Shown: positions 2,111-53,989, counted from the first letter of the stretch. The stretch: DNA of 64,000 nt from Syntrophales bacterium (GCA_963668175.1 OY764159.1:96001-160000), one strand, 5' to 3'. Made by a program: numbers and translations. The notes: generated by a model not told the origin, from the sequence alone.

Positions 2111-3985
2111 TCAAACAAACGTCATCTTCAACTCATACACACCGGCCACAATACTTTTTTCGATTTCAAAGCCTCCCCGCTCAAAGACATGGAGCATCGG
2201 CTCGTTTTCCGCAAGGACTTCGGCCGTAAATCCCAGCAAACCCTGCCTCTTGGCAAGGTATGTCAGATACGAAAGCAATTCGGTACCGACGCCTTGCTGC
2301 TGATAGTCGTCCCTGACGGCAAAGGCAACCTCGGCCGAATGTTTGTTCGGCTCCACATAGTACCGCCCGATACCGATAATCTCCTCTTGGGCCTCCTGGC
2401 CAATAACGGCCAAGATTGCTATTTCTTTGGTATAATCGATGACGACCAGCGACTGAAGCCGTTCATGGGGCATGTCGGTTCGCGAAGAAATGAATCGCCG
2501 ATAGAGACTCTGGTCGGAAAGGGAATAGATGAAATTTTTATAACGGGCCTCATCGGAGATCTTGATCGGCCGGAAGAATATATTGAAGCCCTTGCTTGTT
2601 GTTCTGTAAGCTTCCATATTCTCGGGGTATTGGCCTTCGGTGCCGGGTATAAAAGCCTGGTCCCGATAAATCAAGCCCGCCTTTTTGGCTTCGCTGATGA
2701 GCCAGCCCCGAAACTTGGGATGAGCAATGGCAATGAGCTCCATCGCCCTTTCGCGGATGTTCTTGCCGCTCAAGTACGCGATGCCGTATTCCGTAACCAC
2801 ATACTGAACATCGCCGCGGGTCATCGAGGTCCCGGCCCCCTCCTTCAGAAAAGGCACGATCCGGGATACGACTTCACATGCCGCAGTCGACTGGATCGCG
2901 AGAATCGTCTTGCCCTTTTTCGCCAGGGCGGCGCCGCGCATGAAGTCGGCATGCCCGCCGACACCGCTGTAGAACGTCTTTCCGATGGACTCCGCCGTGG
3001 CCTGACCGGTCAGATCGATTTCCAAAGCGCTGTTGATCGCCACCATGTGCTCATGGCGGGCGATAATCAGCGGATCGTTCGTATAGTCTATCGTCCTGAA
3101 TTCAATCGCGGGATTGTCGTCAACATAGGCATAGGTTTCCCGATGTCCCATGCAGAAGCTTGCTACGGTTTTTCCCCGGTCGATGACTTTTCTGGAGTTG
3201 TCTATGACTCCTTTCTGCATCAGCTCGACGATGCCGTCCGACAGCAATTCCGTATGCACGCCCAGGTGTTTCTTGCCCGAGAGATGGGAAAGAAGGGCAT
3301 TCGGAATGCTGCCGTATCCCACCTGGATCGTATCGCCGTCTTCGATCAAACGGGAAATGTAATTGCCGATCTTGGTCGTAATATCCGTGTCCGATTCGGG
3401 CGTGTATTCCAGGAGCGGCTCATTATAAGGAATCAGGAAATCAATGTTGTCGATATGGACGAAGCCCTCGCCGTGGACCCGGGGCATGTATGTATTGGCT
3501 TGAACGATAACGGTCTTGGCCATCTCCGTAGCCGCCTTTACGATATCGACGCTGATCCCCATGCTCATATAACCGTGATCGTCGGGTACCGACGTCTGGA
3601 TCAGGACGACGTCCACCCGCGCGAGCCCGCGGTAGAAAAGATCGGGCACCTTGGAAAGGAAAACAGGTGTGTAATCGGCCACCCCGGTGTTGATAGCTTC
3701 ACGGGTCGGATCGCCGATAAAGAAGGAATTGTGCCGAAAATTCTGTTTGAATTTTTCATCGGCATACGGCGCGACCCCCAGTGTCCTCACATGGATGACC
3801 TCGGCATCAAAGAAAGCTTTCGGATTGGATTTAACATACCGTATGAGTGAATGGACCAGATATTGCGGTTCGGCACAGGCAGATCCGATGAAGATCACAT
3901 CGCCGCGGTGGACGTTGTTGAACACCTTCTCCACCGGTACAAACTTGTCCGGATATGCTTCTTTCCAGTCAGCAAGCGACTTCAT
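2111..3985 (-). CDS. Acetyl-CoA hydrolase/transferase (4-hydroxybutyrate CoA-transferase-like) fused to a C-terminal GNAT acetyltransferase
   Basis: IQVGYGSIP, GVHTE (catalytic Glu), SGVGGHADF, YVVTEYG; C-terminal AVRDDYQQQGVG acetyl-CoA-binding GNAT motif. Confidence 0.9.
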   Translation of the reverse strand: MKSLADWKEAYPDKFVPVEKVFNNVHRGDVIFIGSACAEPQYLVHSLIRYVKSNPKAFFDAEVIHVRTLGVAPYADEKFKQNFRHNSFFIGDPTREAINTGVADYTPVFLSKVPDLFYRGLARVDVVLIQTSVPDDHGYMSMGISVDIVKAATEMAKTVIVQANTYMPRVHGEGFVHIDNIDFLIPYNEPLLEYTPESDTDITTKIGNYISRLIEDGDTIQVGYGSIPNALLSHLSGKKHLGVHTELLSDGIVELMQKGVIDNSRKVIDRGKTVASFCMGHRETYAYVDDNPAIEFRTIDYTNDPLIIARHEHMVAINSALEIDLTGQATAESIGKTFYSGVGGHADFMRGAALAKKGKTILAIQSTAACEVVSRIVPFLKEGAGTSMTRGDVQYVVTEYGIAYLSGKNIRERAMELIAIAHPKFRGWLISEAKKAGLIYRDQAFIPGTEGQYPENMEAYRTTSKGFNIFFRPIKISDEARYKNFIYSLSDQSLYRRFISSRTDMPHERLQSLVVIDYTKEIAILAVIGQEAQEEIIGIGRYYVEPNKHSAEVAFAVRDDYQQQGVGTELLSYLTYLAKRQGLLGFTAEVLAENEPMLHVFERGGFEIEKSIVAGVYELKMTFV

Positions 3986-48220: not shown

Positions 48221-48248
48221 TTGACAAATCAATAAGCGAACTTATCTT
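48221..48248 (+). promoter_or_regulatory. Putative sigma70 promoter of yqeY-dnaG-rpoD
   Basis: TTGACA-16 nt-TATCTT. Confidence 0.5.
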
Positions 48249-48811: not shown

Positions 48812-50584
48812 TTGAAGGGGTACATTCCCGAAGATAAGGTCGAAGAGATCAAGAGCAGGACGAATATTACCGATGTCGTTTCACAGTACGTAACGCTGAA
48901 GAAAGCGGGACGAAATCTGGTGGGGCTTTGCCCCTTTCACAAGGAAAAGACGCCTTCGTTCACGGTAAGAGAGGATAAACAGATCTTTCATTGTTTCGGA
49001 TGCAATGAAGGGGGGGATGCGGTCTCTTTTTTAATGAAGGTCTCCCAGATGACCTATCCCGAGGCGCTTCGGCATCTGGCGGAAAGAGCCGGTGTCGTTC
49101 TGCCGGAAAGGACCGGAAACCGCAACGATCAAGACCGTCACAGCAGCCGCGAACAGTCCTATCGCGTCAACACGCTTGCGGCCGGCCACTTTGCAAAGAA
49201 TCTGACGCTGCCGCTCGGCAAGGTGGCCAGGGATTATCTGGCCAAGCGTGATATCGGTCCCGGGGCGATAGCAACGTTCAACCTGGGTTACGCTCCGGAC
49301 AGTTGGCGGAATCTCAGAGATTACCTGGAAAGAGAAAAAATATCGCTCCAGACGGCTGAGAAACTGGGGCTGCTGATACCCCGGGAGGGCAGCGGCTCCT
49401 ATGACCGTTTCCGGGGACGGCTCATCTTCCCCATCGAGGACGTGAGCGGCCGGGTGATCGCGTTCGGCGGCAGGATCCTGGGCGAAGGGGTTCCTAAATA
49501 TATGAATTCGCCGGAATCCGAGATATATACCAAAGGAAGGCATCTTTACGGCCTTTATCGCACCCGGGAAGATATCCGGAAGGAAGGCTACGCCATCCTC
49601 GTCGAAGGTTATTTCGATTTGATCGCCCTTTGGAACTTTGGCGTAAGAAACGTCGTAGCGACACTGGGCACGGCACTGACCCATGAGCATGTCGATCTTA
49701 TCCGCCGGTATACGCAGAACATGGCGGTCGTCTTCGACTCCGATGAAGCGGGAAAGAAAGCGTTGACCAGGAGCATCGGTTTTTTTCTTGCCGGCAATAT
49801 GAAGGCGAAAGCGGTTGTTCTTCCCGACGGCTATGACCCTGACGACTTCGTGAGGGCTTTCGGTAAAGAAAAATTGACGGACATCATCAAGAATTCAGGG
49901 TCAATGGTCGATTACTATATCGACCGGGTCATCGGCGAACGGCACGGGCTGGAAGAAAAACGGGAGGCCCTGCACCAGGCCGTGGCCCTTATTAAAGATA
50001 TATCGAGCGCATCCGAACAGGATCTTTTTATACAAAGGGTAGCCGAAAGACTCGGCATAGATCGGGCGCTGCTTCGCAAAGACGTGCGCCGAACCGCAAC
50101 CGTTCCGCCGACGGTGACGCGCGGTTCTGCGGAAGCGGCGAAAAAGAATGTTGCCGTCGATGCCGTGGAGCTGCTCCTTGTCAGCACCATGCTCGAATTC
50201 CCGAAAGTGATCCCGACGGTCGACGACGCGAACGTTATGCTCTATCTTGCGACGGGCGACCTGAAGCGGATCGGCGAGGAGGTCCTGGAAACATTCAAAA
50301 AGGACGGCAGGATCGATGTCATGGGCGTCATGAACGGCATGGAACAAGGTCCTGCCCGGGAAAGGCTGATGCAGTTGATCATCAATGATCACCCCTATGA
50401 TGAAACGGTGGTCGATCGGGTCGTTGCCGACGCCATAAAAAAGATAAAACAAAGATGGTACAAGGAGAAGCGGAGAGCCCTTCAAATTGAGCTACGCAAG
50501 GCGGAAAGCGAAGGCAATGCGTCATTGAGCGATCAACTCGTTCTTGAACAGAAGAAATTGATTCAGGAAGAAAAAGGATTATAG
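48812..50584 (+). CDS. dnaG: DNA primase
   Basis: [11 protein letters not shown]...CFGC zinc domain, KYMNSPE, VEGYFD, FDSDEAG, DPDD. Confidence 0.96.
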
Positions 50585-50586
50585 CC

Positions 50587-52362
50587 ATGGCAGCAAAAAA
50601 ATATCGGGGAGATACGGATATGGGAAAGGACGTCCAGTCTGAAGAATTTAAGAAGCTGATTACGCTCGGAGAGGAAAAGGGTTTCCTCACCTACGACGAT
50701 TTTAACGATTTGTTGCCGTCAGACGTCATATCTTCAGATCAAATAGATGATATCATTATGCTGTTCGGCGAAAAGAACATCGACATCATCGATACCGACA
50801 AGGGCGAAAAGCTCATCGTCAAAAAAGCGGCCGACGAAGTCGTCGATACGAAGGAAGAAGACACCCTCGGCCTTCTGCCGACCATCGGAAAGACTGGCGA
50901 CCCCGTGAAGATGTATCTCCGTGAAATGGGTTTGGTTTCTCTGCTCAGCCGGGAAGGGGAGGTTGAGATAGCGAAGAAAATCGAGCTCGGCGACAAGGAA
51001 GTCATGGACTCCGTTTTCAGCGTCAATTCATCGGTAAAGGCCGTGGTCGACCTGGGGGCAAAGCTTAAGACGGGCGAGATCCGCATTAAAAGCGTCGTGG
51101 ACAATCTCGAAGACGAAGAAGGGTTCGTCGAGGAAGAGATGCATCGGGAAAGGGTCGCCAAGCTGATCGACAAAGTCACGGCGCTGGACAGGAAAAACAA
51201 CGCACTTCGGCTCAAGCTCAAGGAAAAAGGCATCAATGAAACGAAAAAGGACCTTATCAAGGTCGATATCGGTAAGAACTTGCGGAGCATCATTAACTAC
51301 TGCCGGAAAATCAAGTTCAGCAAAAAACAGATCGACCGCATGGTCCTGAAACTCAAATATTATATGTCCGAACTGGACAAAGCGGAGAAAGACATCCGCA
51401 TTGTCAAAGAGAAGACCGGGCTCCCCCTGAAAGAGCTTGACAGGGTCTGGGCGCGAATGAGGATTTCTCCGAAGGAGGCCAAGCTGGCGGCGAAAGAAGT
51501 GGGCGTCTCCGCCGATAAGCTGAGATCCTATGAAAATATGATCAAGGATGCGAGCCATGTCATCAAGGAGATCAACCAGGAGACGGGAATCACCTCGGCG
51601 GCCCTGAAAAAGGTGATCCAGTCGATAGAAAAGGGCGAATCGGAGGCCGAAATTGCGAAAAGAAAGCTCGTCGAGGCCAACCTCCGCCTCGTTGTGAGCA
51701 TCGCCAAGAAATACACGAACCGCGGCCTCCAGTTTCTCGATCTCATCCAGGAGGGCAACATCGGCCTCATGAAGGCTGTCGATAAATTCGAGTACCAACG
51801 GGGCTACAAATTCTCCACGTATGCCACATGGTGGATAAGGCAGGCCATCACGAGGGCCATCGCTGATCAGGCCAGAACCATCCGCATTCCCGTTCACATG
51901 ATTGAGACAATCAACAAGCTGATCCGGACGTCCCGTTACCTCGTGCAGGAACTCGGTCGGGAACCGAACCCCGAAGAGATTGCCAACAAGATGGAATATC
52001 CCTTGGAGAAGGTGAGGAAGGTTCTCAAAATCGCCAAAGAACCCATCTCCCTAGAAACCCCGATCGGAGAGGAAGAAGACAGCCATCTGGGAGATTTCAT
52101 CGAGGACAAGAAGATCATGTCGCCCTCGGAGGCGACCATCAGCATGGATCTGGCCGAACAGACCAGGAAAATTCTTGCGACGCTGACATCCCGGGAGGAA
52201 AAGGTTCTCCGGATGCGCTTCGGCATCAGCGAAAGGCTCGATTATGGACCCGATGAATCCCAGGAAGTCCTGACCGCCAAGAAGGATAAACCGAAACAGA
52301 TCGAAGCGCCGCCCGGCAAGAAGCCCGCGAAGTCGCAGATCAAAAAGGCAATCAAGTACTGA
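50587..52362 (+). CDS. rpoD: RNA polymerase primary sigma factor RpoD with degenerate region 4.2
   Basis: Regions 1.1, 1.2 ([11 protein letters not shown]), 2 ([24 protein letters not shown]), 3 and 4.1 intact; canonical position after dnaG; alternative start at 50620. Confidence 0.93.
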
Positions 52363-52375
52363 TTCTAAAAATATG

Positions 52376-52404
52376 TTGACAAGAATGGAGAATGAGGTTA
52401 GCAG
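52376..52404 (+). promoter_or_regulatory. Possible tRNA promoter
   Basis: TTGACA-17 nt-TAGCAG (weak -10). Confidence 0.35.
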
Positions 52405-52461
52405 AAATCGCGGTTGCGTATGAGCCGACGGTTCAAACGTAATAACCATAAGTAAAATAAA

Positions 52462-52537
52462 GGGCCCATAGCTCAATTGGTAGAGCCACCGGCTCATAAC
52501 CGGTAGGTCCCTGGTTCGAACCCAGGTGGGCCCACCA
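52462..52537 (+). tRNA. tRNA with CAT anticodon, probably tRNA-Ile2 (lysidine)
   Basis: Cloverleaf GGGCCCA...TGGGCCC-ACCA, TAGCTCA, CTCATAA loop, GTTCGA; position after rpoD matches ileX-type loci. Elongator Met cannot be excluded by eye. Confidence 0.9.
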
Positions 52538-52657: not shown

Positions 52658-52686
52658 AATGCACCGTATAGCGGTGCATTTTTTTT
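52658..52686 (+). terminator. Intrinsic terminator
   Basis: aatgcaccg ... cggtgcatt followed by a T run. Confidence 0.7.
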
Positions 52687-52724
52687 CGGTAGTAATATTT
52701 TGTTCTGGTGAAAGGGGGCACTTT

Positions 52725-53447
52725 TTGAAAGAATCGCTATCATTTCTCATCGAAGTTCAACAAATAGATTCGTCGATCGGCCGAATTTACGGGAAGAAAA
52801 AGGATTTGCCCGAAAAACTGTCGGAACTTCAAGGAGCCTTCGAGAAGGCCAACAACGAATTCTCGGAAAACAAGAAGAATATTGACGAATTGGTAGGAAA
52901 ACACAAAGAAAAGGAAGACAGCCTGAAGAAAGGCCAGGAACTCCTGAAAAAGACCAAGGCCCGTCAATTCGAAGTGAAAACCAATAAAGAATATGAAGCG
53001 ATCCTGAAGGAGATTGAATCCATCGAGGAAAAAAACAGCCAGGCGGAGGATCAGATCATCATCCTTCTCGATGAAATGGATCGCTGCCGGGCCGCTTTCG
53101 TTCATACGGAGAAGGAATTCAAGGAATTTAAACTCCGTTATGAAGGCGATAAAAAGAAGATTGAAGATGAACTGGCCGCCCTGGATTCGGAACTCCAGAT
53201 TTTGCAGGAAAAAAGCGATAAAGTTCGCCAAGTGATCGACAAAGCGCTCCTGAAAAAATACGAGGCCATTAAGGGACTCAATAAAGGTTTGGCTGTTGTT
53301 CCCGCGTGGAAGGAAGTGTGCCAGGGCTGCCACATGAACATCCCGCCTCAATTGTATAACGAGTTGCAGAAAACGGTCCAGTTGATCACCTGTCCGAACT
53401 GCAACCGCATCCTCTATTGGGAAAATCAGAATACAGACAGCCATTGA
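52725..53447 (+). CDS. Coiled-coil protein with C4 zinc ribbon (DUF164 family)
   Basis: Long coiled coil, KTNKEY, CQGCHMNIPPQ...CPNCNRIL; TTG start after AAGGGGG. Confidence 0.9.
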   Translation: MKESLSFLIEVQQIDSSIGRIYGKKKDLPEKLSELQGAFEKANNEFSENKKNIDELVGKHKEKEDSLKKGQELLKKTKARQFEVKTNKEYEAILKEIESIEEKNSQAEDQIIILLDEMDRCRAAFVHTEKEFKEFKLRYEGDKKKIEDELAALDSELQILQEKSDKVRQVIDKALLKKYEAIKGLNKGLAVVPAWKEVCQGCHMNIPPQLYNELQKTVQLITCPNCNRILYWENQNTDSH

Positions 53448-53598: not shown

Positions 53599-53989
53599 GG
53601 TGTTGGAGCAGGCCAGATGATCGCTGTTCCGGTTTTCCGGAACGGAGGAAAGTCCGAGCTCCGCAGGGCAGGATGGTCGCTAACGGCGACTGGGGGCGAC
53701 CCTAAGGAAAGTGCCACAGAAAATATACCGCCCGGTTCCCCTTCGGGAGAATCAGGTAAGGGTGAAAAGGCGAGGTAAGAGCTCACCAGTTTCCCGGGTG
53801 ACCGGGAAAGCTTGGTAAACCCCATCCGGAGCAAGACCGAATAGGAGAACACGAAGGGCGGCCCGTCCAACGTTCTCGGGTTGGTCGCTTGAGGCAACGG
53901 GCAACCGTTGCCCCAGATGAATGATCATCACCGCCAGGAGGGCAACCTTGAGGCGGCACAGAACTCGGCTTACGGCCTGGTCCAGCACC
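53599..53989 (+). ncRNA. rnpB: RNase P RNA (type A)
   Basis: GAGGAAAGTCC, GGAAAGTGCCACAGAAA, GGTAAACCCC, GAGCAA and ACAGAACTCGGCTTA signatures; terminal P1 pairing ggtgttggagcaggcc / ggcctggtccagcacc. Confidence 0.95.

Follow-up and report, generated by a model that had tools for sequence, protein, structure and literature searches.

An eroded region 4.2 in the housekeeping sigma factor of Syntrophales and a small protein as candidate reader of the -35 box

This study concerns the housekeeping sigma factor gene rpoD of a Syntrophales bacterium (GCA_963668175.1) and a gene for a protein of 94 amino acids (aa) elsewhere on the same chromosome, whose products probably make up one primary sigma factor between them. 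The stretch of DNA that was analysed, hereafter the window, comprises 64,000 nucleotides (nt; OY764159.1:96001-160000), and positions are counted from its first letter unless a contig is named. Within the window, rpoD (50587..52362, plus strand) encodes a protein of 591 aa and follows directly on dnaG (48812..50584), which is itself preceded by a yqeY-like gene (starts of the three open reading frames (ORFs): 48264, 48812 and 50587). The protein scores above the Pfam cut-offs for Sigma70_r1_1 (68.5 bits), Sigma70_r1_2 (47.2 bits), Sigma70_r2 (85.9 bits) and Sigma70_r3 (106.3 bits), and with 612.3 bits it exceeds the cut-off of 555 of the NCBIfam RpoD equivalog model NF004208, being the sole gene of the genome to do so. 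By its housekeeping locus and its equivalog score it is an orthologue of the group-1 sigma factor RpoD. It lacks, however, the complete region 4 with a -35-reading helix-turn-helix (HTH) that is expected of a group-1 sigma factor.

Region 4.2 of the primary sigma factor is among the most conserved segments of bacterial proteins, and reading of the -35 box is a textbook property intrinsic to sigma-70. In the RpoD protein of the window, the match to the Sigma70_r4 profile (PF04545) reaches 18.9 bits, which is below the cut-off of 24.1, and aligns aa 530-546 with positions 2-18 of the 50 profile positions. Because the match covers this part of the profile only, region 4.1 is present and the HTH of region 4.2 is absent. 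Region 4.1 (approximately aa 520-547; 52144..52227, plus strand), as delimited by Pfam, structure prediction and alignment, comprises two helices and is nearly invariant across the class. AlphaFold2, employed for the C-terminus with an alignment of 50 sequences, placed these helices at aa 520-531 and 535-545 with a predicted local distance difference test (pLDDT) score of ~93. Divergence begins at nt 52228, from where a tail of 44 residues takes the place of region 4.2 (52228..52359, plus strand). This tail is acidic at first and then Lys-rich, is predicted to be disordered and represents a collinear relic of the HTH. In the AlphaFold2 model its residues from approximately 556 to 588 have pLDDT values below 50, and the HTH is missing. 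A reading of the window made beforehand from the sequence alone had described region 4.2 as eroded and regions 1.1-4.1 as conserved, and had named an intact HTH in a model as a result that would speak against it; profiles and model agree with this description.

The same state was encountered throughout the Syntrophales. RpoD tails were read in 51 genomes (29 including that of the window, 21 further genomes, and G109), and all 51 are eroded and depart from the consensus directly after RMRFGI[SG][ED]R. Not one has a normal region 4.2, which answers affirmatively whether the loss is clade-wide, a point that the sequence-only reading had raised for checking. With the query used, RpoD was not found in the incomplete genome G020, and the incomplete genome G017 yielded a second sigma factor only. 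In contrast, a canonical region 4.2 is present in all 28 parsable RpoD tails from 29 loci of other Desulfobacterota. These canonical proteins are encoded at the same dnaG-rpoD locus, have regions 1.1-4.1 in common with the Syntrophales proteins and are essentially identical to them in region 4.1; what sets the Syntrophales proteins apart is a variable, predicted-disordered tail instead of the HTH. A second lineage with an eroded RpoD consists of G059 and G122, which alone represent their class among the genomes available and in which the protein has 578 aa and ends in ...REEKVLRLRFGITEGAEG...

The Syntrophales tails vary in sequence and are frequently acidic and then rich in Lys/Arg, and some of them retain relics of the ancestral recognition helix, e.g. 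...RERARQIEANTLGKFRNPSRKR. The alignment of RpoD C-termini has a mean column identity of 55%, with region 4.1 near-invariant despite the loss of the helices that normally accompany it; in four of seven close pairs, the non-synonymous substitution rate (dN) of region 4.1 is zero. The ratio of non-synonymous to synonymous rates (dN/dS) amounts to 0.03-0.07 for the body of RpoD, reflecting strong purifying selection. For the tail, one genus gives 0.02-0.03 and two further close pairs give 0.19-0.35, noisy values given that 44-48 codons were compared. Between genera the tail turns over fast: in the comparison with the nearest genus its dN is 0.50, whereas that of the body is 0.11.

From the eroded region the sequence-only reading had deduced a sigma factor that has lost -35 reading and relies on extended -10 elements or on activators. 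This deduction is not supported, because TTGACA is kept at a distance of 17 bp from the -10 box, including the promoters of tRNA and rRNA genes. In the whole genome, TTGACA followed by TATAAT (at most one mismatch in each) occurs 294 times with a spacer of 17, as compared to 95-172 times with any other spacer between 8 and 30. When all 4096 hexamers were ranked by their occurrence at spacer 17 upstream of -10-like boxes, TTGACA came first (87 occurrences versus a mean of 9.0 at other spacers; z = 26) and TTGACT second. The pattern TTGACA-N17-TAnnnT has 161 sites, while 15-46 were counted for the other spacers between 12 and 23. An extended -10 signal was not found among these 161 sites, in which TG at -15/-14 amounts to 6.2%, i.e. 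chance level. Their -10 hexamers are led by TATACT (20 sites), followed by TATAGT and TATATT (13 each) and by TATAAT and TAAAAT (11 each). Genome-wide alignment of the 1305 TATAAT or 1817 TTGACA occurrences produced weak logos only, because most of these occurrences are located in coding DNA.

At stable RNA genes the -35 box is particularly evident. Of the 50 tRNA genes, 19 have a perfect TTGACA in the 110 nt preceding them, where about one would be expected; all 19 are among the 40 lead genes without another tRNA gene just upstream, and most of these boxes are found 49-64 nt ahead of the mature 5' end. The rRNA operon has two promoters in front of the 16S gene, TTGACT-N17-TAGTTA and TTGACA-N17-TATATA. 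At the tRNA promoters the perfect -35 box is paired with a weak -10 box (TAnnnn); a stringent promoter pattern gave only two matches upstream of tRNA genes, and it was the relaxed -10 pattern that revealed the -35 box as the conserved element. One of the 19 boxes belongs to the window, in which a promoter-like site TTGACA-N17-TAGCAG (52376..52404, plus strand) is located just past the rpoD stop codon and 86 nt upstream of a tRNA-Met gene (anticodon CAT; 52462..52537, plus strand; ARAGORN and Rfam). Another promoter-like site, TTGACA-N16-TATCTT (48221..48248, plus strand), precedes the row of yqeY-like gene, dnaG and rpoD. Judged by these patterns, the -35 box appears to be still read and, if anything, to be the dominant promoter element.

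Which protein could read it? Besides RpoD, the sigma-70 family is represented in the genome by RpoH (286 aa; TIGR02392, 330 bits), FliA (236 aa) and two extracytoplasmic function (ECF) sigma factors, and a second group 1 or group 2 sigma factor was not found in the closed genome. The idea of the sequence-only reading that RpoD has become subfunctionalised beside an intact paralogue consequently fails for this organism. Its advice to search for stand-alone sigma-4 proteins proved fruitful: scanning the genome with the Pfam profile Sigma70_r4 returned a 50.9-bit match to profile positions 18-50 only, within an open frame of 104 codons at 1.33 Mb. The corresponding gene (G000:C1:1333502-1333783, minus strand), 1.19 Mb away from rpoD, starts with TTG after the sequence AAGGAG, is preceded by TTGACA-N17-TAGTCT and encodes a small protein of 94 aa, designated P0001. 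On its own this protein scores 50.3 bits (cut-off 24.1) through aa 42-74, which again align with profile positions 18-50 only. RpoD (positions 2-18) and the small protein (positions 18-50) hence cover the Sigma70_r4 profile in a complementary manner.

Residues 42-86 of the small protein constitute a region 4.2 of the group-1 type, and the NCBIfam models that match best are of the RpoD type, aligned by their C-termini. For residues 1-41, no match to a Pfam or NCBIfam family, including the Wbl domain, was obtained. In an alignment of 33 orthologues 43 of the 94 columns are invariant and the mean column identity is 85%; the invariant residues include C7, C18, C23 and C35, which are spaced C-x10-C-x4-C-x11-C, and the motifs NCTWVA, GP.TLEE.G and TRER. 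Searching all six frames of the 4.57-Mb genome for the recognition-helix signature [ST]R[EQD]R[IVL][RK]Q[IL] retrieved the gene of the small protein only. AlphaFold2 modelled the protein with low confidence (mean pLDDT 56.7) and predicted a helix at aa 33-41 in front of the HTH helices at 47-54 and 58-71, followed by a C-terminal helix. Comparison of this model with the Protein Data Bank by Foldseek gave no match at E <= 0.001; the best rows were sigmaA region-4 chains from WhiB complexes, and the part that aligned was the sigma-4 part. The N-terminal Cys domain is new and possibly metal-binding. We also considered whether the gene is a 3' end of rpoD displaced by an inversion or a misjoin, which is ruled out by its own ribosome-binding site and start codon, by the Cys-rich N-terminus and by its conservation elsewhere. 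In public records the protein is named 'hypothetical protein' or 'sigma factor-like helix-turn-helix DNA-binding protein', and in the open-access literature searched we found no paper on region 4.2 of Syntrophales RpoD or on the small protein.

The small protein and the eroded RpoD have matching distributions. Full-length orthologues of 73-89% identity are present in 59 of 61 Syntrophales genomes including that of the window, in open frames of ~90-210 and mostly 90-130 codons. In a sample of the phylum comprising 121 genomes, full-length matches were restricted to four Syntrophales and to G059 and G122, i.e. to the second lineage with an eroded RpoD. No full-length small protein was detected in the other 115 genomes: five of them gave nothing at E <= 1e-8, and in 110 the match was limited to approximately residues 44-85 and fell, with few exceptions, into ORFs of ~350-950 codons, which have an intact region 4.2 of their own. 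Eroded RpoD and small protein therefore co-occur across genomes, as expected for a split sigma factor. Among 1.84 billion representative proteins, 11 clusters only were retrieved at E <= 1e-30.

Several further observations were made on relatives of the small protein. The Syntrophales genome G041 (4.5 Mb) has two copies of the gene, at G041:C2:36103-36357 and G041:C2:2989863-2990141, with 76% and 83% identity. A looser family of proteins of 84-99 aa (P0134, P0136, P0141, P0147, P0191 and P0252) is characterized by spaced Cys residues, the pattern ...NC[TS].[VI]A...GP and an HTH, in which the recognition helices are diverged (e.g. SRMRVCQIE). A phage origin was considered and rejected: of the 80 viral-contig loci listed, one (L234) has a full-length relative and the other 79 have the HTH part alone. 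The relative in L234 (positions 3001-3243 of a 41-kb IMG/VR contig) shows 73% identity, and the contig is possibly a prophage region or a misclassified piece of a Syntrophales genome.

We consider it probable that the housekeeping sigma factor of these bacteria is split in two, consisting of RpoD and a separate 94-aa protein that reads the -35 box, as far as this can be judged from sequence. RpoD would contribute regions 1.1-4.1 and thereby binding of core RNA polymerase (RNAP), recognition and melting of the -10 region and the first two helices of sigma-4, while the small protein would contribute the HTH of region 4.2 as reader of TTGACA. Jointly the two proteins carry the full set of promoter-reading regions, as expected for a split sigma factor. 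The small protein would have to dock on the holoenzyme to bring its HTH to the required distance of 17 bp from the -10 box, and we infer that it packs on region 4.1 of RpoD and/or on the tip of the beta flap, rebuilding a module that resembles sigma-4; the Cys-rich N-terminal domain may form the docking surface. As to the history of this arrangement, region 4.2 may have been duplicated onto a Cys-rich module, whereupon the copy residing in rpoD would have been freed from constraint and have decayed separately in each family. Such independent decay would explain the different relics in different families. Constraint on the sequence has shifted from the 3' end of rpoD to the small gene. What is new is the 94-aa candidate -35 reader, while the kind of system it would belong to, the split sigma factor, is a known one.

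Several points weigh against this interpretation. First, G014 and G109, both 98% complete, have no full-length match to the small protein. The gene is present in nine of the ten genomes of the family of G014, including the other genome of its genus, and the congeners of G109, G012 and G107, carry it as well; the two cases may be assembly gaps or a real intermediate state. In G014 and G109 the RpoD tail has preserved its relic of the ancestral recognition helix comparatively well (...IRRAKQIEKNVLKKLRG... and ...VEKARQIEENVLKNLRNPSRRR...). Second, the co-occurrence may be based on just one or two evolutionary events. The RpoD tree (regions 2-4.1, quick search) is poorly resolved and attaches the second class by a very long branch, so that it fits one origin as well as two, with the second class as sister to the Syntrophales or not. 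Third, rpoD and the small gene are unlinked, contrary to known split sigma factors. Fourth, the neighbourhood of the small gene is not conserved, as the upstream gene is common to three of 18 loci compared. Fifth, the helix modelled ahead of the HTH suggests that the small protein might be a three-helix domain complete in itself, with no need for region 4.1 of RpoD. Sixth, the tail of RpoD does not evolve neutrally and has some function of its own, because in some genera purifying selection continues to act on it.

An alternative would be that the small protein is no subunit of the holoenzyme and acts instead as an independent DNA-binding regulator, or as a sigma-4 mimic or competitor, at TTGACA-like sites or at the beta flap, with the -35 boxes being read in some other way. 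The missing linkage and the unconserved gene context fit this alternative, and so do the Cys-rich HTH proteins with diverged helices (P0191, P0252 and P0141), which indicate that this layout also exists without RpoD-type specificity. However, no reader would then be left for the strict 17-bp geometry of TTGACA and -10 box at the promoters of tRNA and rRNA genes, and the recognition-helix signature occurs in no other ORF. Nor does this alternative explain why the small protein is present only where region 4.2 of RpoD is eroded, or why its HTH is as invariant as that of a primary sigma factor. We therefore regard an independent regulator as unlikely.

It is also conceivable that RpoD itself reads or bypasses the -35 region, its basic tail touching upstream DNA non-specifically, and that TTGACA is kept for other reasons or read weakly by the relics. 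Many tails do end rich in Lys/Arg, some have relics such as ...RQIE.N.L.KLRNPSRR, and the selection on the tail in some genera would be in line with such a role. Yet the tails are not conserved between families, and several are devoid of a relic, including that of the genome studied here and purely acidic ones (L040). Moreover, the tail is predicted to be disordered and Pfam recognizes no HTH in it, whereas conservation of TTGACA at exactly 17 bp calls for a specific reader. Overall, a -35-reading or -35-bypassing RpoD is improbable.

Even less can be said for the idea that another complete sigma factor serves the TTGACA-N17 promoters, with RpoD being specialised or decaying. Some other Syntrophales do possess a further sigma ORF of 390-530 aa whose region 4.2 is intact (G002:C97:861-1571, L044 in G017, G037:C37, G046:C26 and G054:C12) and which has 47-57% identity to the C-terminal half of RpoD. 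The closed genome studied here offers only RpoH, FliA and the two ECF sigma factors for this purpose, and its RpoD sits in the dnaG-rpoD locus, scores above the equivalog cut-off and is under strongly purifying selection; we consider this explanation very improbable. Finally, the idea that an error of assembly or sequencing near nt 52228 created the tail has virtually no chance of being true and is already refuted by the comparative data, as the genome is closed in one contig of 4.57 Mb and is rated 100% complete, short-read contigs (two runs of one sample, possibly the source sample and so not independent) cross 51800-52490 with zero differences and no joint, and the same erosion in all related genomes excludes a local misassembly as well as the single frameshift that the sequence-only reading had already argued against.

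Downstream of rpoD, the window contains two further features beyond the tRNA-Met gene. A gene for class A RNase P RNA (Rfam RF00010, 323.5 bits; 53605-53987, plus strand) is located two genes downstream of rpoD. Between it and the tRNA-Met gene lies an ORF of 262 aa (52659-53447, plus strand), whose product looks coiled-coil-like and has a C-terminal CxxC...CxxC pattern.

How would a split primary sigma factor of this kind relate to known systems? A recent preprint lists SigO-RsoA of B. subtilis, Sig7-Sig8 of Tn916, gp55/gp33 of phage T4 and gp33/gp34 of phage SPO1 as split sigma factors, in which one sigma function is distributed over two polypeptides that both associate with core RNAP; the systems described there are alternative factors, belonging to phages, a conjugative element or a stress response, and are divided into a region-2 and a region-4 protein (bioRxiv 10.64898/2026.10.01.756105). 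The Syntrophales case would differ from these in that it concerns the primary, group-1 sigma factor of a whole class and in that sigma-4 itself is divided, with regions 4.1 and 4.2 on different proteins. Genes of the known split sigma factors are typically adjacent, whereas those of the Syntrophales are 1.19 Mb apart. The small subunit additionally brings in a four-cysteine domain, and the partnership with RpoD is one that we infer. In being small and acting, as proposed, at sigma-4 and the beta flap, the protein is reminiscent of the WhiB-like (Wbl) iron-sulphur (Fe-S) proteins and of AsiA of phage T4, some of which are likewise Cys-rich. However, the sigma-4 to which Wbl proteins and AsiA bind is intact, and they are not known to have a region 4.2 HTH themselves, while the Syntrophales protein itself provides the HTH.

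Going one step further, all housekeeping -35 recognition in this class of strict anaerobes might be delegated to a detachable subunit whose four Cys residues bind a metal or an Fe-S cluster, such that redox state, metal supply or abundance of the subunit tunes promoter recognition globally. We regard this extended version as quite unlikely. If a metal- or redox-switched -35 subunit did exist, it would represent a level of global transcription control that is not known for any primary sigma factor.

The Syntrophia/Syntrophales are key degraders of fatty acids and aromatic compounds in methanogenic systems, where they live syntrophically. Here, a whole class has a primary sigma factor without region 4.2 and nevertheless promoters that look strongly -35-dependent. 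Should the proposed division of labour hold true, this would be the first case of a housekeeping sigma factor that is split, with the break inside one folded domain, and core RNAP with RpoD, in presence or absence of the 94-aa protein, would provide a simple system for examining the placement of sigma-4 on the beta flap. The 'hypothetical protein' of the databases would have to be re-annotated as a probable essential transcription factor, and models of promoters and regulation in the Syntrophales would change.

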